NCBI RefSeq assembly: GCF_044324785.1
Contig: NZ_CP172127.1
DNA: 64,000 nt
Direction: 5' to 3' (one strand)
Source: Escherichia coli
Lineage (GTDB): Bacteria > Pseudomonadota > Gammaproteobacteria > Enterobacterales > Enterobacteriaceae
Shown here one piece after another: positions 697-59,304 of this stretch. The translations under genes and the position numbers were made by a program. How positions within the stretch are numbered: position 1 is the stretch's first letter; each line of letters begins with the position of its first letter. The notes beneath the pieces were generated by a model that was not told the DNA's origin, ran no database searches, and saw only the letters and a list, made by a program, of their open reading frames with translations.

Positions 697-1764
697 ATGT
701 CAAAACTGGTTCTGGAACAGGTGACCAAAACCTTCGGCGAATTCTATGCCGCCAGAGAAATCTCGTTCTGCGCCGAAGAGGGGGAGTTCGTGACCCTGCT
801 TGGGCCGAGCGGCTGCGGTAAAACCACCCTGCTGAAAATGATCGGCGGTTTTCACCAGCCGGACAGCGGACGCATTCTTATTGGCGATAAAACGGTCAAC
901 GCCCTGCCGCCAGAAAAGCGCAATACCGCCATGTGTTTCCAGTCCTATGCGCTGTTTCCGCACCTCAACGTGGCACACAACATCTGCTTCGGCCTGAAGC
1001 AGAAAAAAGTCGCTATCAGTGAACAGCAGGACCGGCTGACGGAGGCGCTGAAGCAGGTGGGGCTGGAGAGCCAGCGCCTGAAAATGCCCGCCCAGCTCTC
1101 CGGCGGCCAGCAGCAGCGCGTGGCGCTGGCGCGGGCGATGATCACCCGCCCGGACGTGATCCTGTTCGACGAACCTCTCTCCAACCTTGATGCCAAGCTG
1201 CGCGAAAGCGTGCGTTTTGAAATCAAGGAACTCCAGCGGCAGTATCAGCTCACCTCGATCTACGTCACACACGACCAGGCGGAAGCGCTGGCGATGTCGG
1301 ATAAAATTGTGGTGCTGAACGCCGGTAATGTTGAGCAAATAGGCAAACCGGAAGAGATTTACTACCGTCCGGCCAACCGCTTTGTGGCCGACTTTATCGG
1401 CGCGGCCAATATCGACACCGCGCAGGTCACGCCCTCAGAGCAGCCGGGCTATTACCGGGTACGCTGTGCCCTCGGCGAGTTTTATGTGCATTCCGTACAG
1501 CCGCCACGCACAGAGCACTGCTATATCTGCTGGCGACCGGAAGATGCGCAGTATGTCAGCCAGCCTCAGGCAGGCAACAACCACTTCTCCCTGACGCTCG
1601 ACAAAATGGCCTTTATGGGCAACCTCACCGAAGCCTGGGGCCACAACGACAGCGGGTTATCGGTCCGCTTACAGCTAATTAAAAAGCCGCCCGTCGCCCC
1701 CGGCGAGAGTGCCTGCTTCCGTCTGGCGGAAAACGCCATCCATTTTCTGGAGCCGGTATCATGA
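697..1764 (+). CDS. ABC transporter ATP-binding protein (PotA/FbpC-like, with C-terminal TOBE-like domain)
   Basis: Walker [13 protein letters not shown] signature [14 protein letters not shown], Walker [12 protein letters not shown]; GGAAGAGAG RBS precedes the ATG at 697; stop overlaps the next gene (ATGA at 1761). Confidence 0.85.
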
Positions 1765-2627
1765 AAAACTGGCGCAATGATGCGGTCGCCTGGCTGCTGA
1801 TGCTCAGCGGGCTGGGCACGATCCTACTACTGATGGGATCGACGTTTTATGTGGTGATCGTCCAGAGCCTGGGCTGGTTCAACATCGAAGGCGACAGCAA
1901 TTTCTCGCTGGAATACTGGCGCAATATGTTGCAGGACGAAGTGTTGCAAAGCGCCCTGTTCTACTCAGTGAAAGTGTCACTGCTGGGGGCGTTCGGCTCG
2001 GTGATTTTCGCCTATCCGCTGGCGCTGTGGCTGCGTAAACCGATGGCCTATAAAGAGGGCATTATCGCGGTGCTGCGTGCGCCGATGTTTATCCCCGGTC
2101 TGGTGGCGGCGTTTCTGTTCGTCAATATCGTCGCTTATCACGGCATTATCAACGAACTGCTGCTGGCGCTGGGGATTATCAGCGAGCCGCTGCGGATGCA
2201 GAACGATGACTTCGGCTGGGGCGTGGTTATCCTGCAAATCTGGAAAAACCTGCCCTTCGCCCTGATCCTCGTCGGCGGCGCAGTCAACGCCATCCGTAAC
2301 GACGTGCTGGACGCCGCCAGCAATCTCGGTGCCAGCCGCTGGCGCAGTTTTACCGGCGTGGTGGTGCCGCTGACGCTGCCCGCCGTGCAGGTGACGCTGA
2401 TTCTGGTATTTATCGGCGCGCTGGGCGACTTCGCCTTCTTCTCGGTGGCCGGGCCACGCAACACCTACTCGCTGGCGCGGCTGATGCAGGCCACCGCCAT
2501 GGAGTACGGCGAGTGGAATAACGCGGCGGTGATTGCGGTGATCATTATGGTCACGGCGGCCATCTGCACGTTGCTGATTGCCACACTGATTACCCCGTTC
2601 GCCACCCGCAAAGGAGAGGTCAAATGA
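1761..2627 (+). CDS. ABC transporter permease (PotB-like)
   Basis: 288-aa hydrophobic protein with multiple TM segments; translationally coupled to the flanking genes (overlaps at 1761 and 2624). Confidence 0.85.
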   Translation: MKNWRNDAVAWLLMLSGLGTILLLMGSTFYVVIVQSLGWFNIEGDSNFSLEYWRNMLQDEVLQSALFYSVKVSLLGAFGSVIFAYPLALWLRKPMAYKEGIIAVLRAPMFIPGLVAAFLFVNIVAYHGIINELLLALGIISEPLRMQNDDFGWGVVILQIWKNLPFALILVGGAVNAIRNDVLDAASNLGASRWRSFTGVVVPLTLPAVQVTLILVFIGALGDFAFFSVAGPRNTYSLARLMQATAMEYGEWNNAAVIAVIIMVTAAICTLLIATLITPFATRKGEVK

Positions 2628-3460
2628 GCCACACTGCCAACGGTCGCCGGGTGGTGACGATTTCGCTGATCTTCTTCGTGGTCGCTAATCTGATCTGGCT
2701 GGGTATGCCGTTCGGCATGGCGATCCTCTGGTCGCTGGTTGACCCGGCCCATCCGTGGAGCTACCCGGATATCTTCCCGCCGGTGCTGTCGTTCAGCCGC
2801 TGGCTGCTGGTATGGGAAAAGACTTCGCTTTCCGAGGCGCTGTTCAACAGCTACACCATTGCGCCTGCGGTAGCGGTCGCCAGCCTGCTGCTGTCGCTAC
2901 CCACCGCGTATGCCTTCGGGCGCATGACCTTTCGCGGTAAGGCGGTGGCGGAGATGCTGACGCTGATCCCGCTGGTGATGCCGGGGATGCTGATCGGGAT
3001 TTTTTTCAGCGCCATGCTGATCAACCTCAATATCGACAACGCGTTTATCAGCATTGTTATCGGCCATACGGTACTGACGCTACCCTATTCGATCCGCATT
3101 ATGTCTGCGGGGTTTAAGTCTGTGCCGCAGGATCTGATCGACGCCAGCCGCGACCTGGGCTCCGGCGCGTGGGACACCTTCTGCAATGCCTATCTGCCGC
3201 TGTTAAAACCGAGCTTCCTGGCGGCGCTGATTTTTTGTCTGGTGCGAAGCCTGGAAGAGTTCGGCATCTCATACGTGCTGGGCGCGCCGGACTTTATCAC
3301 CGTTCCGACCATTCTTTACTCTTTCCTTGGCTACTCCTTCGTCCGCCCGGATGCGGCGGTGGTGTCGATGATTCTGGTGATCCCCAATGTCATCCTGATG
3401 GTCATCATTGAGAAGTTGCTGAAGGGGAACTATCTGTCGCAATCCACGGGAAAAGCCTGA
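2624..3460 (+). CDS. ABC transporter permease (PotC-like)
   Basis: 278-aa polytopic membrane protein; operon context. Confidence 0.85.
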   Translation: MSHTANGRRVVTISLIFFVVANLIWLGMPFGMAILWSLVDPAHPWSYPDIFPPVLSFSRWLLVWEKTSLSEALFNSYTIAPAVAVASLLLSLPTAYAFGRMTFRGKAVAEMLTLIPLVMPGMLIGIFFSAMLINLNIDNAFISIVIGHTVLTLPYSIRIMSAGFKSVPQDLIDASRDLGSGAWDTFCNAYLPLLKPSFLAALIFCLVRSLEEFGISYVLGAPDFITVPTILYSFLGYSFVRPDAAVVSMILVIPNVILMVIIEKLLKGNYLSQSTGKA

Positions 3461-3478: not shown

Positions 3479-4558
3479 GTGATGAAAAAAACAGTGATGA
3501 TTCTGGCGGGCGGCCTGCTGTGCAGCTCGCTGGCAACGGCGGCGGATAGCCCCGACCTGATTGCCCAAGCGAAAAAAGAGGGCAGCGTGACCTTTAACGT
3601 CTGGTACTTACAGCCGCAGTGGCGCAGCTTTGTGAAGGATTTTGAGCAGCAGTACGGCGTTAAGGTGCGCATCCCGGAAGGGAATATCGACGGAAACGTG
3701 AACAAGTTGCTGGCAGAAGCGGGGAAAAAAAGGGGTAAAATAGATGTTATCGCCTTGTCTGTTGCGCAACTGCCAGTGGCAATGGGAGCGAAAGCGCTGG
3801 CGAAGGTGGACGATTTGCCGGGCTATGGCGACGCCATTCACCAGATTCAGAACGTTGACACCCAGGGTTATGCCGTGGCGTTCTGGGGCAACCAGACCGG
3901 ATTTGCTTACGACCCGCAGCAGATGGGTGACCGGGCGCTGCCACAAACGCTGGAGCAGTTGCAGAGCTTTATCGACGCCAACCCGAAAAAGTTCGGCTAT
4001 AACGACCCGAACAACGGCGGCGCGGGGGAAGCCTTTATCCAGCGCATCGTCACTACTCAGGGCGACACGTTTAACAGCGAAGCGGAGAGCGTTGACCCGG
4101 CAGTGGTGAAAAACTGGCAGAAAGGCTGGCAGTGGTTTGCTGCTAATAAGGACAAAATTACCCGCACGGCCTCCGGTGCTGATAGTCTGACACGCCTGAA
4201 TGACGGCGAGCTGATGCTGACACCATCCTGGGAAGACCATCTTGTCGGACTACAAAAAACCGGGGCTATCAATTCGCGGCTGAAATTTTACGTACCGGAG
4301 TTTGGCATGCCTGGCGGCGGTAACATCGCTGCCATTGCCGCCAACAGCCCACATCCGGCGGCATCACGCTTATTCCTCAACTGGCTGATTCAGCCTGAAA
4401 CGCAACATGCACTGAGTAAAGTCTTCGGCTCCACGCCGATGAACAAACAGCTCCGTCCGGATCTGAATGAGATCCCGGAGCCCACGGTGGAGTTTTATGG
4501 CAAAGCGTACAGTACACAGCTCAAAAAAGATTTCGTTCGTGAGGTCATGATGCAGTAA
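3479..4558 (+). CDS. Periplasmic substrate-binding protein of the ABC transporter (PotD/family 1 SBP-like)
   Basis: Signal peptide MMKKTVMILAGGLLCSSLATAADS; 359 aa; operon context. Confidence 0.8.
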   Translation: MMKKTVMILAGGLLCSSLATAADSPDLIAQAKKEGSVTFNVWYLQPQWRSFVKDFEQQYGVKVRIPEGNIDGNVNKLLAEAGKKRGKIDVIALSVAQLPVAMGAKALAKVDDLPGYGDAIHQIQNVDTQGYAVAFWGNQTGFAYDPQQMGDRALPQTLEQLQSFIDANPKKFGYNDPNNGGAGEAFIQRIVTTQGDTFNSEAESVDPAVVKNWQKGWQWFAANKDKITRTASGADSLTRLNDGELMLTPSWEDHLVGLQKTGAINSRLKFYVPEFGMPGGGNIAAIAANSPHPAASRLFLNWLIQPETQHALSKVFGSTPMNKQLRPDLNEIPEPTVEFYGKAYSTQLKKDFVREVMMQ

Positions 4559-4653: not shown

Positions 4654-5178
4654 ATGAAACGTAAACTTATTGCCTTTGTGATTCTGGCTACATCATCCTG
4701 TGGATATGCAGCCACCAAAGATGTAACAATGAATCTTGTTGATAGTGACGGAAAAGAGCGAAATATTGGTAAAATAACCATCCAGAAGACACCCTACGGG
4801 CTGCTGTTCACCCCTGATCTTCACTCCTTACCCGCCGGCATTCATGGTTTTCATGTACATGAAAACGCAAGTTGTGCTCCTGCCCTGAAAGATGGAAAAA
4901 CTGTCGCTGCTTTATCTGCAGGTGGTCACTTTGACCCGGAAAAAACAGGGAAGCATCTCGGTCCATGGTCTCCTGATGGCCACCTGGGTGATCTCCCTGC
5001 GCTTTATGTCACTCATGACGGAAAAGCAACCTACCCGGTGCTTGCGCCAAGACTATCTGAATTAAAGGAGCTCGATGGCCGTTCGCTAATGCTCCACGCA
5101 GGAGGTGATAATCATGATGACCATCCTGAACCTCTAGGTGGCGGTGGTGCAAGAATTGCCTGTGGTATCATCCCATAA
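4654..5178 (+). CDS. sodC: Periplasmic Cu/Zn superoxide dismutase, accessory SodC paralogue
   Basis: Signal peptide plus Cu/Zn-SOD motifs [49 protein letters not shown]; clearly diverged from the chromosomal K-12 SodC as recalled. Confidence 0.85.
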
Positions 5179-5185
5179 TCAATCA

Positions 5186-5208
5186 GGTAAGGGATATCCT
5201 CCCTTACC
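5186..5208 (+). terminator. Hairpin downstream of sodC (possible intrinsic terminator)
   Basis: GGTAAGGGA-tatcc-TCCCTTACC perfect 9-bp stem just after the sodC stop; weak U-tract. Confidence 0.35.
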
Positions 5209-5306
5209 CTTAATCTTCCCTGGCTGCATGTGCATATCTTTCAGTTACTGTGAGATACCTGTATTACGGTGTCTTTTTAGCTCACAGAAATATCAGACAG
5301 CCCGTT

Positions 5307-5531
5307 TCAGTGTTTTATTACCTTAATCTTTTTACGGCATTCTTCAGCTCTTGCGCATGCTATTTTTTCACCTGTTTCATAACATTGCTGGCAGCCTAAT
5401 CCAAATTTCATCGCCATATCATAACCTTCCCGAAAACCTCGGAACCACGCGTTACGAAGGTATTCATCATATTCCCCGCAGTCAATAATAACCATTTTAT
5501 TTTCATGGGATTTTCCGGTATTCTCACTCAT
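5307..5531 (-). CDS. Hypothetical small cysteine-rich protein (about 74 aa from MSENTGKSHENK)
   Basis: ORF only; internal Met chosen as start; no recognisable family. Confidence 0.25.
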   Translation of the reverse strand: MSENTGKSHENKMVIIDCGEYDEYLRNAWFRGFREGYDMAMKFGLGCQQCYETGEKIACARAEECRKKIKVIKH

Positions 5532-6360
5532 TTTCGATACCTCAATGCTTACAACAGAAAAGTATACTTTTACGAAGTTCGCCTTTGCAGGACTATATAA
5601 AGTTATCACTGGATGCAAGAGCCGGAAATCCTGTATATCAGGATCAACTTTGTAATTCAATAACATATTATCCAGTGAAAAAGTAAGTATATTTAAGCTG
5701 GGGAAGGAGAAGGGGGACTTGATTTGATATTTTCATCAATAATATTATTTTTCCTCCTCCATTATTCATTCAGACCTGGTTCCGGGCGTAATTCCGATTT
5801 CTCTGTTGAAGCGATGCATTTATATTTAAATATTCACCTGTCATTGAATTTTATTTGAAATAGGAGAAAATCTCCTCCTGTACTACAGATAACCCGGAAT
5901 GTTCCTCGAAAGAAAATTCTGGCGCAGAATTCACGCCCGGTTCTGTTCAACATCATGCAGGATAACGATACCGAAACGTTAAACTCTGGCAATTCTCGTG
6001 TTATACACAGGCAGGAGTGATTACTACGGTAAGAATTGCTGAAAAGGGGAGAACACTGAAGGCCTTATTCGCGAAGAATAAAGGAGACATTTCATGTAAA
6101 TTATTATCAGAGATAACCTTCTCCAGGCGCTTTTGTTCGCTTCCTGAATTGCTACCTGATACATATTTACGGGATGCCAGCCTGGTGACTATAACTCCGA
6201 AAAGACCGATTATTGTATTGCGTGCATCCGGCATGTTTACAATGTACGCTGGTATCTAACGGAGTCTGACACAGATGCACGCAGGTGTATATTTTAACGT
6301 AATTATCCGGAAAGAACAGTATATTTTAATGCGGGAGTTGCATGAGCGGTGGATTTGCCC

Positions 6361-7266
6361 CTATATTTCCAGACACCTGTTATCACTTAACCCATTACTG
6401 GCCTGCTGCCGCAGATATTCCCGTGGCGAGCGATAACCCAGTGCACTATGCGGATGCCATTCGTTATAATGCTCGAACGCCTCTGCAAGGTTCTTTGCTG
6501 CCGTTAACCCGTCTGGTTTAGGCATGATACTGATGTAGTCACGCTTTATCGTTTTCACGAAGCTCTCTGCTATGCCGTTACTCTCCGGACTCCGCACCGC
6601 CGTGTTCTTCGGTTCAAGCCCCAACATCCGGGCAAACTGCCGTGTTTCATTAGCCCGGTAGCATGAACCATTATCCGTCAGCCACTCTACTGGAGACGCC
6701 GGAAGCTCGTTGCCGAAGCGGCGTTCCACCGCTCCCAGCATTACGTCCTGTACTGTTTCACTGTCGAAGCCGCCCGTAGTGACTGCCCAGTGCAGTGCCT
6801 CACGGTCACAGCAGTCCAGCGCGAACGTGACTCGCAGTTTTTCTCCGTTATCACAGCGGAACTCGAACCCGTCAGAGCACCATCGTTGATTGCTTTCTTT
6901 CACGGCCACTTTGCCAGTATGTGCCCGTTTCGATGGCGGTACAGCGGTTTTTCGCTCAAGCAACAGCGCATTCTGGCGCATGATCCGGTAAACACGTTTG
7001 GCATTGATCGCAGGCATACCATCAAGTTCGGCCTGTCTGCGAAGCAGCGCCCATACCCGACGATAACCATACGTGGGCAGCTCTCCGATAACATGGTGTA
7101 TACGGAGAAGCACATCCGTATCATCTGAGTGACGGCTGCGGCGACCATCTTTCCAGTCATCGGTTCGTCTGAGAATTACGTGCAACTGCGCACGCGACAC
7201 CCGGAGACAACGGCTGACTAAGCTTACTCCCCATCCCCGGGCAATAAGGGCGCGTGCGCTATCCAC
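6361..7266 (-). CDS. insD: IS2 transposase OrfB (InsD), DDE domain
   Basis: 301-aa ORF matching IS2 InsD; overlaps insC in the -1 frame, typical of IS3-family elements. Confidence 0.9.
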
Positions 7267-54341: not shown

Positions 54342-55988
54342 ATGTCAAACAAACCCTTTATCTACCAGGCACCTTTCCCGATGGGGAAAGACAATACCGA
54401 ATACTATCTACTCACTTCCGATTACGTTAGCGTTTCCGACTTCGACGGCGAAACCATTCTGAAAGTGGAACCAGAAGCCCTGACCCTGCTGGCGCAGCAA
54501 GCCTTTCACGACGCTTCTTTCATGCTCCGCCCGGCCCACCAGAAACAGGTCGCGGCTATTCTTCACGATCCAGAAGCCAGCGAAAACGACAAGTACGTGG
54601 CGCTGCAATTCTTAAGAAACTCCGAAATCGCCGCCAAAGGCGTACTGCCGACCTGCCAGGACACCGGCACCGCGATCATCGTCGGTAAAAAAGGCCAGCG
54701 CGTGTGGACCGGTGGCGGTGATGAAGAAGCGCTGTCGAAAGGCGTCTATAACACCTATATCGAGGATAACCTGCGCTATTCACAGAACGCGCCGCTGGAC
54801 ATGTATAAAGAGGTCAACACCGGCACGAACCTGCCTGCGCAAATCGACCTGTACGCGGTAGATGGCGATGAGTACAAATTCCTTTGCGTTGCGAAAGGCG
54901 GCGGCTCTGCCAACAAAACCTATCTCTACCAGGAAACCAAAGCCCTGCTGACTCCCGGCAAACTGAAAAACTTCCTCGTTGAGAAAATGCGTACCCTCGG
55001 TACTGCAGCCTGCCCGCCGTACCATATCGCGTTTGTGATTGGCGGTACGTCTGCGGAAACCAACCTGAAAACCGTCAAGTTAGCAAGCGCTCACTATTAC
55101 GATGAACTGCCGACGGAAGGGAACGAACATGGTCAGGCGTTCCGCGATGTCCAGCTGGAACAGGAACTGCTGGAAGAGGCCCAGAAACTCGGTCTTGGCG
55201 CGCAGTTTGGCGGTAAATACTTCGCGCACGACATTCGCGTTATCCGTCTGCCACGTCACGGCGCATCCTGCCCGGTAGGCATGGGCGTCTCCTGCTCCGC
55301 TGACCGTAACATTAAAGCGAAAATCAACCGCGAAGGTATCTGGATCGAAAAACTGGAACACAATCCAGGCCAGTACATTCCACAAGAACTGCGTCAGGCC
55401 GGTGAAGGCGAAGCGGTGAAAGTCGACCTTAACCGCCCGATGAAAGAGATCCTCGCCCAGCTTTCGCAATACCCGGTATCCACCCGCTTGTCGCTCACCG
55501 GCACCATTATCGTGGGTCGAGATATTGCACACGCCAAGCTGAAAGAGCTGATTGACGCCGGTAAAGAACTGCCGCAGTACATCAAAGATCACCCGATCTA
55601 CTACGCGGGTCCGGCGAAAACGCCTGCCGGTTATCCATCAGGTTCACTTGGCCCAACCACCGCAGGTCGTATGGACTCCTACGTGGATCTGCTGCAATCC
55701 CACGGCGGCAGCATGATCATGCTGGCGAAAGGCAACCGCAGCCAGCAGGTTACCGACGCGTGCCATAAACACGGCGGCTTTTACCTCGGTAGCATCGGCG
55801 GTCCAGCGGCGGTACTGGCGCAGCAGAGCATCAAGCATCTGGAATGCGTCGCTTATCCGGAGCTGGGTATGGAAGCTATCTGGAAAATCGAAGTAGAAGA
55901 TTTCCCGGCGTTTATCCTGGTCGATGACAAAGGTAACGACTTCTTCCAGCAAATCGTCAACAAACAGTGCGCGAACTGCACTAAGTAA
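54342..55988 (+). CDS. fumB: FumB class I fumarate hydratase (anaerobic)
   Basis: 548 aa, [31 protein letters not shown]...; Fe-S class I fumarase family. Confidence 0.95.
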
Positions 55989-56110: not shown

Positions 56111-56761
56111 ATGACCCGCACACTCAAGCCGTTAATTCTTAACACCGGCGCACTGGCGCTAACGTTAATCCTGATTTATACCGGCATTTCGGCCCATGAC
56201 AAACTCACCTGGCTGATGGAAGTGACACCGGTGATTATTGTCGTGCCGCTACTGCTTGCCACCGCCAGACGTTATCCGTTAACGCCGCTGCTCTATACGC
56301 TCATTTTCTTTCACGCCATCATCCTGATGGTCGGCGGACAATACACCTACGCGAAAGTCCCCGTTGGTTTTGAGGTGCAGGAATGGCTGGGGTTGAGTCG
56401 TAATCCGTATGACAAGCTGGGGCACTTTTTCCAGGGGCTGGTGCCTGCACTGGTGGCACGAGAAATTCTCGTTCGCGGGATGTACGTGCGCGGACGTAAA
56501 ATGGTGGCGTTCCTGGTCTGCTGCGTGGCGCTGGCGATAAGCGCGATGTATGAATTAATCGAGTGGTGGGCGGCGCTGGCAATGGGCCAGGGAGCGGATG
56601 ATTTTCTCGGCACCCAGGGCGACCAGTGGGACACGCAATCCGATATGTTCTGCGCGCTGCTTGGCGCATTAACGACGGTGATATTCCTCGCTCGCTTTCA
56701 TTGCCGCCAGCTACGGCGCTTTGGCTTAATCACCAGAGCGCCGGAAGCGATTACCCCTTAA
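56111..56761 (+). CDS. yjdF: YjdF inner-membrane protein (DUF2238)
   Basis: 216-aa hydrophobic ORF, MTRTLKPLILNTGALALTLILIYTGISAHDK...; the true start may lie upstream; the stop overlaps the melA stop. Confidence 0.8.
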   Translation: MTRTLKPLILNTGALALTLILIYTGISAHDKLTWLMEVTPVIIVVPLLLATARRYPLTPLLYTLIFFHAIILMVGGQYTYAKVPVGFEVQEWLGLSRNPYDKLGHFFQGLVPALVAREILVRGMYVRGRKMVAFLVCCVALAISAMYELIEWWAALAMGQGADDFLGTQGDQWDTQSDMFCALLGALTTVIFLARFHCRQLRRFGLITRAPEAITP

Positions 56762-58113
56762 CGGTGCAACCAGCCAGGCAGCCAGTCGCCGTGGGCAGCA
56801 ATCAAGTCGTCAACAAGAGCATATATTTCGTCAATGCCCAGCACGGCGGCAGTATGCGGGTCCATCATCGCGGCGTGGTAAACACGGTCGCGATTTTCCG
56901 TAAGAATGGCTTCGGTCAGCAGCGTCTGTACGTTGATGTTGGTTTGCATCAGAGCGGCCAGATGCGAAGGTAGCGTACCGACTTTGGTCGGCTGAATGCC
57001 ATTAGCATCAACCAGACAGGCTACTTCCACGCAACATCCTTGTGGCAGGTTATCAATCAAACCATCGTTACGGACGTTGCCGTAAATCACACTCGGCTCG
57101 CCAGTCCAGATAGCGTTCATGATTGTGCTGGCATATTCCCGTGACGGTTTAATATCAATCCGGGAGGCGTTTTTATACTCCTCCAGCTCTTTATGCCAGT
57201 TCGCCAGCTGCTCGACGCAGCGTTTCGGGTACTCATCCAGCGGTACTTTATAACGCTCAATCAAATCCTCACGACCTGGCTTAATAAACCACGGTGTGTA
57301 CTCAGCAAAATGTTCTGACGATTCCGTGACGAAGTAGCCCAGCTTTTTGAACATTTCGTAGCGCACAATATTCTGGCAGCGAGTATTGCCATGAATATTC
57401 GGCTTCGGTGCCTGCCCTGCTTCATAAGCCGCCAGCAGTTCCGGGTAGAGATTCACGTAACTGCCGTCGGCGGTTTTGCGCTCCAGTTCCAGGTAAAACG
57501 CCATATGGTTGATACCTGCGCAACGGTAACGTAGCGTAGCCGGGTCGATATTGAGGTCACGCGCCAGCTCTTCCGCCGTTCCCTGCACCGAATGGCACAA
57601 CCCTACCTGTTTGATATGCGGATAGTGGGCATACATCGCCCAGGTATTCATCGCCATTGGGTTAACGTAGTTGAGCATGGTGGCATCGGGGCAGACTTCC
57701 GTCATGTCCTCGCAAATTTGCCACAGATGCGGAATGGTACGTAGCGCGCGCATAATACCGCCCGGCCCCAACGTATCGGCAATGGTTTGTTCCAGACCAT
57801 GCCGCTTACAGACCTCGAAATCAGTCACCGTGCAAGGTTCATAACCGCCAATCTGAAATGCCACCACCACAAAATCGGCATCCTGTAAGGCTTCTTTCTG
57901 TTGGGTGTGGCAGGTGATTTTGCCGCTGGCCCCTGCTGAATCCATCAGCTTACGCACCACAATGTGCGACTCTTCCAGGCGGGTGGGATCAATGTCCATC
58001 AGGGCAATATGCGCCGTTTTCAGCGCCTCGCGATGGAACACATCACCAAGAATATTTTTAACGAAAATCGTCGAACCAGCGCCGATAAATGTAATTTTGG
58101 GTGCAGACATCAT
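56758..58113 (-). CDS. melA: MelA alpha-galactosidase (NAD/Mn-dependent, GH4)
   Basis: 451 aa, MMSAPKITFIGAGSTIFVKNILGDVFHREAL... ...AAHGDWLPGWLHR; intact. Confidence 0.95.
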   Translation of the reverse strand: MMSAPKITFIGAGSTIFVKNILGDVFHREALKTAHIALMDIDPTRLEESHIVVRKLMDSAGASGKITCHTQQKEALQDADFVVVAFQIGGYEPCTVTDFEVCKRHGLEQTIADTLGPGGIMRALRTIPHLWQICEDMTEVCPDATMLNYVNPMAMNTWAMYAHYPHIKQVGLCHSVQGTAEELARDLNIDPATLRYRCAGINHMAFYLELERKTADGSYVNLYPELLAAYEAGQAPKPNIHGNTRCQNIVRYEMFKKLGYFVTESSEHFAEYTPWFIKPGREDLIERYKVPLDEYPKRCVEQLANWHKELEEYKNASRIDIKPSREYASTIMNAIWTGEPSVIYGNVRNDGLIDNLPQGCCVEVACLVDANGIQPTKVGTLPSHLAALMQTNINVQTLLTEAILTENRDRVYHAAMMDPHTAAVLGIDEIYALVDDLIAAHGDWLPGWLHR

Positions 58114-58395
58114 GCAGATCTCCTGGCTTGCTTGAATAACTTCATCATGGCAGGCGAATCTGCAGAAAACCTCCGGCTTCCAGGTTGAGCATTCCCATAA
58201 ACTCAGATCCTGCGTGAAGCGGCAGTAAATCTAAGTTTATGGGAATAATTTACCTGAAAAGCAGAGTTTTCGGCCTCATGATGCTCGGACAGTCCCCTCG
58301 CCGCTGTGGGAAGAGGGTGAAAACCGTGCTCCCACTCGCAGTCATCCTCCCTCACTCCTGCCATAATTCTGATATTCCAGGAAAGAGAGCCATCC
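58114..58395. promoter_or_regulatory. melA-melR divergent control region (MelR and CRP sites in K-12)
   Basis: 282-bp intergenic region between divergent melA and melR; binding sites known from K-12 were not mapped individually. Confidence 0.55.
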
Positions 58396-59304
58396 ATGAA
58401 TACAGATACGTTTATGTGCAGCAGCGACGAAAAACAGACCCGCAGCCCGCTGTCGCTGTATTCGGAATACCAGCGGATGGAGATTGAGTTTCGCGCACCG
58501 CATATCATGCCCACCAGCCACTGGCATGGTCAGGTCGAAGTGAATGTGCCTTTCGATGGCGATGTGGAATACCTGATCAACAATGAAAAAGTGAATATCA
58601 ATCAGGGTCATATCACGCTGTTCTGGGCCTGTACACCGCACCAACTAACAGATACCGGAACCTGTCAGAGCATGGCGATTTTTAATCTGCCGATGCATCT
58701 GTTTCTCTCCTGGCCGCTGGATAAAGACCTGATTAACCACGTCACTCACGGCATGGTGATCAAATCACTGGCCACACAGCAACTTAGCCCGTTTGAAGTG
58801 CGCCGCTGGCAGCAGGAATTGAACAGTCCGAACGAGCAAATTCGCCAGCTCGCCATTGATGAAATTGGCCTGATGCTCAAGCGATTTAGCCTCTCTGGCT
58901 GGGAACCGATTCTGGTCAATAAAACCTCGCGCACACACAAAAACAGCGTCTCGCGCCATGCGCAATTTTATGTCAGCCAGATGCTGGGCTTTATTGCCGA
59001 AAACTATGATCAGGCGCTGACCATCAACGATGTGGCTGAGCACGTCAAACTTAACGCCAACTATGCAATGGGGATATTCCAGCGGGTCATGCAATTGACG
59101 ATGAAACAGTACATAACCGCGATGCGCATCAACCACGTTCGCGCGTTACTGAGCGATACCGATAAAAATATTCTCGATATTGCCCTGACGGCAGGCTTTC
59201 GTTCAAGTAGTCGTTTTTACAGCACGTTCGGCAAATATGTCGGCATGTCGCCGCAACAATACCGCAAACTTAGCCAACAGCGCCGCCAGACGTTTCCCGG
59301 CTAA
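58396..59304 (+). CDS. melR: MelR AraC-family melibiose operon activator
   Basis: 302 aa; C-terminal AraC-type HTH (...DILDIALTAGFRSSSRFYSTFGKYVGMSPQQYR). Confidence 0.95.
   Translation: MNTDTFMCSSDEKQTRSPLSLYSEYQRMEIEFRAPHIMPTSHWHGQVEVNVPFDGDVEYLINNEKVNINQGHITLFWACTPHQLTDTGTCQSMAIFNLPMHLFLSWPLDKDLINHVTHGMVIKSLATQQLSPFEVRRWQQELNSPNEQIRQLAIDEIGLMLKRFSLSGWEPILVNKTSRTHKNSVSRHAQFYVSQMLGFIAENYDQALTINDVAEHVKLNANYAMGIFQRVMQLTMKQYITAMRINHVRALLSDTDKNILDIALTAGFRSSSRFYSTFGKYVGMSPQQYRKLSQQRRQTFPG

Follow-up and report, generated by a model that had tools for sequence, protein, structure and literature searches.

A widespread melB-less allele of the Escherichia coli mel locus in which melA and yjdF converge on overlapping stop codons

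In Escherichia coli K-12, the melRAB regulon comprises a MelR-activated melAB operon, the second gene of which encodes MelB, a Na+/H+/Li+:melibiose symporter. The K-12 record gives the order adiA, melR, melA, a 102-bp spacer, melB (1,422 bp), a 138-bp spacer, yjdF (630 bp; 209 amino acids), fumB and dcuB, and the arrangement melR–melA–melB is also found in Citrobacter, Salmonella, Kluyvera, Cedecea, Buttiauxella, Serratia, Pantoea, Vibrio, Photobacterium and Pasteurellaceae, with yjdF downstream also in Citrobacter and Kluyvera. Losses at this locus have been reported within the species. In STEC/EPEC O80:H2, the mel operon is missing, a 70-bp fragment ('70mel') is inserted and melibiose is not fermented, a combination that serves as a lineage marker (PMC11945584). 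Touchon et al. (2009) included 'melB, melibiose permease' in their list of genes that group B2 strains lack (PMC2617782), and Touchon et al. (2020) found phylogroup B2 to be negatively associated with melibiose degradation genes (PMC7314097); literature searches found no published description of the junction sequence itself. Here we analyse a 64-kb stretch of E. coli DNA (the window) in which melR and melA are intact and melB is absent. We conclude that the mel locus of the window very probably has the common B2-type melB-deletion allele of Escherichia, the outcome of a single old deletion that left MelR and MelA in place. As a discovery this carries little weight, the absence of melB from B2 strains having been tabulated since 2009, and the feature belongs to an already catalogued and widespread allele.

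The window retains the order dcuB–fumB–yjdF / melA–melR–adiA, with fumB (54342..55988, plus strand) as the flanking synteny anchor. According to the open reading frame list, melA (56758..58113, minus strand) encodes an intact α-galactosidase of 451 amino acids and melR (58396..59304, plus strand) an intact AraC-family activator of 302 amino acids, the products being 99.3% and 99.7% identical in amino-acid sequence to K-12 MelA and MelR, respectively. The conserved 282-bp control region between these divergent genes (58114..58395) matches K-12 at 275 of 282 positions with zero indels and presumably holds the melAB promoter and the MelR and CRP sites known from K-12. The segment from melR through the control region to melA is collinear with K-12, at 97.5–99.6% identity. 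Of a functional K-12-type regulon, an intact melR, control region and melA are present, whereas melB is not found downstream of melA, leaving melA as the single gene of what is the melAB operon in K-12. The O80:H2 lineage, likewise a natural deletion at the mel locus, is set apart by its published description, as it has lost the mel operon to a 70-bp insert, whereas the window lacks melB alone and keeps melA and melR intact.

On the other side of the junction, yjdF (56111..56761, plus strand), encoding a DUF2238 inner-membrane protein of 216 amino acids, converges on melA, and the tetranucleotide TTAA at 56758..56761 is common to both stop codons. The yjdF stop TAA occupies 56759–56761 and the melA stop, a TAA on the minus strand, is the reverse complement of TTA at 56758–56760, giving a 4-nt overlap of the two reading frames (...ACCCCTTAACGG..., also given as ...GATTACCCCTTAACGGTGCAACC...). 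In a blastn comparison with K-12, the match ends at 56734 on the yjdF side and resumes at 56758 on the melA side; the 23 bp between (56735–56757) stand for 1,668 bp of K-12, made up of the end of yjdF, the 138-bp spacer, melB and the 102-bp spacer. The K-12 features missing from the window are therefore melB itself, the two flanking spacers with the hairpin and REP element positioned 3′ of melB and yjdF, and the stop codon native to yjdF. A tblastn search with K-12 MelB as the query detected no MelB-like sequence across the 64-kb window (best E = 5). The junction is a structural fact rather than a statistical signal, and chance is not at issue. The first-pass annotation had given the K-12 order as melR, melA, melB, yjdF, which the K-12 record confirms, and had described melB and both spacers as absent with melA and melR intact, a description upheld by the reading frames, the K-12 record and blastn alike. 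It had also called for alignment to K-12 melAB–yjdF and to other Escherichia; the match to K-12 has its limits at 56734 and 56758, and comparison with other Escherichia, described below, gives the same junction in three further species. The annotated locus of E. coli 042 has the same architecture: melA and yjdF converge, their stops overlap and melB does not intervene.

The 23-bp junction remnant, AGAGCGCCGGAAGCGATTACCCC (56735..56757), appears as the gap in the blastn alignment and encodes the tail RAPEAITP on the plus strand. K-12 YjdF ends in ...RRFGLITG* (209 amino acids), whereas YjdF of the window ends in ...GLITRAPEAITP (216 amino acids; over a longer stretch, ...RRFGLITRAPEAITP), the eight residues RAPEAITP taking the place of K-12 G209. 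Codons 1–208 of yjdF are native, with 98% identity of residues 1–208 to K-12 YjdF, and codons 209–216 and the stop are made by the deletion junction. Whether this C terminus was native or created by the junction had initially been left undecided; it is junction-made, the extra codons being the antisense of a remnant of the melA–melB spacer. Remnant and K-12 spacer have the 9-mer GCGCCGGAA in common. In the orientation of melA, the window reads TAA-GGGGTAATCGCTTCCGGCGC-TCTG-GTGATTAAGCC, and the melB-bearing loci of K-12, CB6837 and Escherichia sp. MOD1-EC7003 (L006) have TAA-AACGCGACTAAACGCTACTGCGCC-GGGGGATTTATTCCGGCGC-ACACC-TCTG-ACGATACC... Aligned in this way, the remnant is evidently the loop and distal arm of the melA–melB spacer hairpin plus TCTG, fused to yjdF at around codon 208/209. 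An origin of the 23 bp as a foreign insert was also considered and is ruled out by their alignment with the distal arm and loop of that hairpin.

Relative to the modern spacer, the remnant is also missing 24 nt beside the melA stop and another 5 nt deeper in the spacer, and these two further small losses indicate that the deletion was not one clean excision. The extra gaps may represent either added small deletions or a different ancestral spacer, such that the exact breakpoints cannot be fixed. Spacer comparisons allow at most 1–2 nt of microhomology at the breakpoints, and a repeat-mediated mechanism therefore cannot be claimed.

The junction has also brought together an inverted repeat, GGCGCTTTGG / CCAGAGCGCC (56714..56743), which RNAfold predicts to form a 10–11-bp stem with an 8-nt loop; native yjdF codons supply one arm and the spacer remnant supplies the other. 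This element could conceivably act as a 3′-end hairpin, although a terminator role would be speculation. It is followed by no U tract on either strand, and a consensus terminator scan returned 4 sites compared with 2.3 ± 1.5 in shuffles, with none convincing between melA and yjdF. Covariation in the hairpin is unsupported, as the sole stem change (T to A, in E. whittamii (L004) and SCPM-O-B-8794 (L005)) falls within coding sequence and disrupts a wobble pair.

To gauge how common the junction is among E. coli, we used a 121-bp probe centred on it, scored as colinear when at least 80% was covered. Of 5,426 complete genomes, 1,263 (23%) meet this threshold, and elsewhere just one of the probe's halves matches; a 2.4-kb probe likewise aligns as a single colinear piece in E. 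coli 042 and many other genomes. Carriers include the B2 strains CFT073, Nissle 1917 and ATCC 25922 and the phylogroup D strain 042, all of which have the gene order, remnant and 4-nt stop overlap of the window. The 12.1-kb locus is 100% identical among CFT073, several assemblies of ATCC 25922, Nissle 1917 and many more, and the 121 bp around the junction in the window are 100% identical to Nissle 1917. The yjdF gene is frameshifted in Nissle 1917, and hence also in CFT073 and ATCC 25922 with their identical loci, whereas that of the window is intact. A 651-bp yjdF is annotated in 042, where it overlaps melA exactly as in the window, and in AVS0093; both strains have TTAG at the overlap as opposed to TTAA in the window. 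The junction is annotated in 042, Nissle 1917 and AVS0093 and, in all, in hundreds of RefSeq genomes. Loss of melB had at first seemed a rarity, an impression dispelled by the occurrence of the junction in nearly a quarter of complete E. coli genomes as well as in three further Escherichia species. Over 24 kb, identity to the window reaches at most about 99.0% in any complete genome, the best being 042 at 99.0%, and the flanks are mosaic, with melA nearest to 042 (0.8% divergence) and yjdF nearest to K-12 (1.4%).

These distributions bear directly on alternative accounts of the missing gene. If K-12 were the only comparison, the deletion could pass as recent and private to the source strain; yet the identical junction is carried by 1,263 complete genomes and by three Escherichia species with flanks diverged at the species level, and, among E. 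coli strains alone, copies of the junction allele have diverged by as much as 3.2% in melA and 4.4% in yjdF, leaving that account with practically no credibility. It is just as hard to believe that assembly or sequencing collapsed melB at this point, because independently finished genomes agree, with Nissle 1917, CFT073 and ATCC 25922 each represented by several separate assemblies, and recurrence of an identical junction in so many complete genomes excludes an assembly artefact. The window covers only 64 kb of the source genome, which leaves room for a melB relocated elsewhere with its function kept, but we regard this as highly improbable. K-12 melB DNA is detected in 4,136 genomes and K-12 melA in 5,399 of the 5,426, and the counts add up exactly (4,136 with melB plus 1,263 with the junction make 5,399), indicating, from matching genome counts rather than a per-genome table, that the junction carriers have no melB elsewhere and that melB has very probably not moved. 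Essentially all melA-bearing genomes thus have one or the other of melB and the junction. Furthermore, genomes have a median of one melB place, just 2 such places lie on plasmids and the window itself is devoid of MelB-like sequence.

Beyond E. coli, a species scan using one MelA-bearing genome per species identified the same junction in E. whittamii, in 'E. coli' SCPM-O-B-8794 and in Escherichia sp. E1V33 (L081), which have the motif TAAGG[G/T]GTA[A/G]T[C/T]GCTTCCGGCGCTCTGGTGAT in common. Their loci are 92.1%, 92.8% and 94.1% identical to the window, respectively, and sliding windows show species-level divergence right up to the junction. One junction embedded in flanks of such divergence argues for a single old event, the product of which would have diverged along with Escherichia lineages or been exchanged among them long ago. 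Conservation of the remnant extends to 042, Nissle 1917, AVS0093 and these three genomes, in the common form AGAGCGCCGGAAGCGAT[T/A]ACCCC that gives RAPEAITP and is also that of the window; across four melB-less lineages, the YjdF tail is RAPEAITP in three and RAPEATTP in one, with mostly synonymous changes. The wide melR–melA–melB synteny and the spacer remnant together show the melB-plus arrangement to be the deeper ancestral state and the state in the window to be a deletion. Representatives of E. albertii, E. fergusonii and E. marmotae are absent among the MelA loci of the scan and contribute no outgroup information.

Citrobacter youngae and its relatives (five loci: L012, L021, L026, L027 and L070) are also melB-less, with melR–melA followed by convergent yjdF and fumB. 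Unlike the window, however, they have a 55–70-nt spacer that keeps the GCCGGAT...ATCCGGC hairpin found between melB and yjdF in melB-bearing Citrobacter, as well as a native YjdF C terminus and stops that do not overlap. The retained hairpin and native YjdF end indicate that melB was deleted independently in these five Citrobacter.

Where melB is present in Escherichia, it is far more uniform than the genes on either side of it. Three melB-bearing loci were compared in detail: K-12, CB6837 and MOD1-EC7003, the flanks of the last being about 96% identical to K-12. Pairwise divergence among them is 0.28–0.63% in melB, compared with 1.7–3.3% in melA and 2.7–4.0% in yjdF, and in sliding windows between K-12 and MOD1-EC7003, identity rises from 95–97% to 99.3–100% in exactly the part that comprises melB, the spacers and the end of melA. 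Only 9 of 4,136 melB copies are less than 99% identical to K-12, whereas melA falls below 99% in at least 1,210 melB-bearing genomes. This pattern suggests that a uniform melB segment may have passed from lineage to lineage by homologous recombination acting through melA and yjdF. It also raises the prospect, which we entertain only tentatively, that in E. coli and its sister clades the older, resident state is the melB-less allele and that the K-12-type melB segment is a young haplotype that has re-spread, in which case the window would represent retention of an old state rather than a loss in its own lineage. The low divergence of melB relative to melA and yjdF in the same pairs, the confinement of the K-12/MOD1-EC7003 identity jump to melB and its spacers, the genome-wide contrast between melB and melA, and the sharing of the deletion allele with three other Escherichia species all favour this reading. 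Against it, melB must have persisted somewhere in Escherichia, given that MelB is 84–87% identical in amino-acid sequence to its Citrobacter and Salmonella counterparts, a level consistent with that of MelR and YjdF; the detailed comparison comprises three melB-bearing loci only; and the data are accounted for equally well if one melB allele swept through a polymorphic population. In its fullest form the proposal, again possible but doubtful, is that melB presence or absence is an ancient cross-species polymorphism: the deletion would predate the divergence of E. coli from E. whittamii and further species of the cryptic clades and would have been kept as a working LacY-dependent MelR–MelA module, with a single young melB haplotype recently re-spread by recombination into phylogroups A, B1, E, part of D and a sister clade.

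Among four melB-less Escherichia lineages, and on the assumption that these were melB-less throughout their divergence, dN/dS is 0.014–0.029 for melA (dS 0.20–0.43), 0.017–0.045 for melR and 0.05–0.09 for yjdF, with dS of 0.17–0.45 across the melA and melR comparisons. By this measure, melA and melR are under strong purifying selection in melB-less lineages and are not decaying. ATCC 25922 is MEL-positive in the API 20E test (Table S2, PMC11546641), the one carrier strain for which this phenotype is documented, and since it has the junction, a Mel-negative phenotype does not follow from loss of melB. The first-pass annotation had predicted that a strain with this locus would lack the dedicated melibiose transporter; the prediction holds for the Na+/melibiose symporter, which is gone, but any Mel-negative implication needs qualifying, given the MEL-positive ATCC 25922.

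Melibiose is also transported by LacY. The standard transport-null host for work on MelB, DW2, is melA+ melB− lacZ−Y− and is Mel-negative 'since lacking melibiose transport' (PMC10374971). LacY is thus the likely route of melibiose uptake in melB-less carriers. The textbook figure of 75% of E. coli fermenting melibiose (quoted in PMC11546641) lies close to the 76% of genomes with melB, and a causal tie between the two was dropped, as ATCC 25922 is both melB-less and MEL-positive. The type strain DSM 30083T is melibiose-positive (PMC4334874), an observation set aside as evidence on melB-less carriers.

Collectively, these comparisons are best accommodated by an old illegitimate deletion of about 1.65 kb. 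Lost in it would have been the final codon and stop of yjdF, the spacer between yjdF and melB together with its REP and terminator hairpins, the whole of melB and that half of the melA–melB spacer lying nearer to melB; what was left of yjdF would thereby have been joined to roughly 23 nt of residual spacer beside the melA stop. Fusion to the remnant gives YjdF its 8-residue tail and leaves the convergent genes ending on a common TTAA with no intrinsic terminator between them; any consequence of this terminator loss we infer only. The allele would have had one origin, after which it diverged in step with several Escherichia lineages while homologous recombination reshuffled it with its flanks. 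The product would be a working MelR–MelA module without a permease of its own, in a cell that has lost Na+-coupled, lac-independent melibiose uptake but that should still take up and ferment melibiose, most probably via LacY: LacY would bring melibiose into the cell, MelR would activate the melA promoter and MelA would hydrolyse the sugar. Continued use of melibiose, most probably by this route, would explain the purifying selection on melA and melR.

K-12 is not, then, a universal template for the mel locus: about one-quarter of E. coli genomes have melA without melB, including the clinical and probiotic workhorses CFT073, ATCC 25922 and Nissle 1917. Metabolic models should not call these strains melibiose-negative, as at least ATCC 25922 ferments the sugar. 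The remaining interest of the locus lies in population genetics, as a compact case of gene presence/absence polymorphism in which the 'absent' allele is old and diverse and the 'present' allele young and uniform. If the resident-state proposal is true, melB of K-12 would be a recent arrival and the arrangement in the window a long-standing state.

Across the 24 kb spanning 40000–64000 of the window, the best match among complete Escherichia coli genomes is 042, with none exceeding about 99.0% identity; this lineage has no close representative among the complete genomes. The flanks of the melB-less junction are mosaic, with melA nearest to 042 and yjdF nearest to K-12, and the junction itself is identical to that of Nissle 1917. 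In Nissle 1917, yjdF (L084, 5430–6072) is annotated as a frameshifted pseudogene within an ST73-type locus that is identical in CFT073 and ATCC 25922; the window, 042 and AVS0093, by contrast, each carry an undamaged yjdF. The overlap between the yjdF and melA stop codons is kept in a variant form in the latter two genomes, as TTAG replaces TTAA (042, L001, about 3859–3862; AVS0093, L085, about 3069–3072), such that yjdF ends in TAG and melA still ends in TAA.

Loci without melB also occur in other genera. In five Citrobacter loci (L012, L021, L026, L027 and L070; 5354–5425), only 55–70 nt separate melA from the convergent yjdF, and these loci retain a GCCGGAT...ATCCGGC hairpin that, in the melB-containing Citrobacter gillenii (L007), sits between melB and yjdF. 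The five Citrobacter loci are independent cases of melB loss. In Raoultella, Klebsiella and Enterobacter sp. 10-1 (L040–L044 and L046), melR and melA are both present and a MelB homologue was not found within 4 kb downstream of 5344. yjdF was not detected between melB and fumB in Salmonella enterica subsp. diarizonae (L014) or in Citrobacter sedlakii/amalonaticus (L010 and L018); as melB is followed by fumB in these loci, yjdF is itself variably present here in related genera. A contig labelled Chryseobacterium sp. 18061 (L032) carries an enterobacterial melR–melA–melB locus with a MelA that, like that of Buttiauxella, has 90% amino-acid identity to E. coli MelA; this record is probably contaminated or mislabelled.

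Between Escherichia sp. MOD1-EC7003 (L006) and K-12 (L002), identity reaches 99.3–100% across melB and both of its spacers (about 1350–3100 in the former; 5129–6780 in the latter) compared with only 95–97% in the flanking melA, yjdF and fumB. Given this difference, the melB segment looks like a recombination tract that moved melB from lineage to lineage. Among E. coli genomes that have melB, the gene is broken in some by IS5-like or IS1 elements (H106, H116 and H144), and in one genome ISApl1 lies inside melA (H206). Such interruptions of melB or melA are further independent ways of losing mel function.
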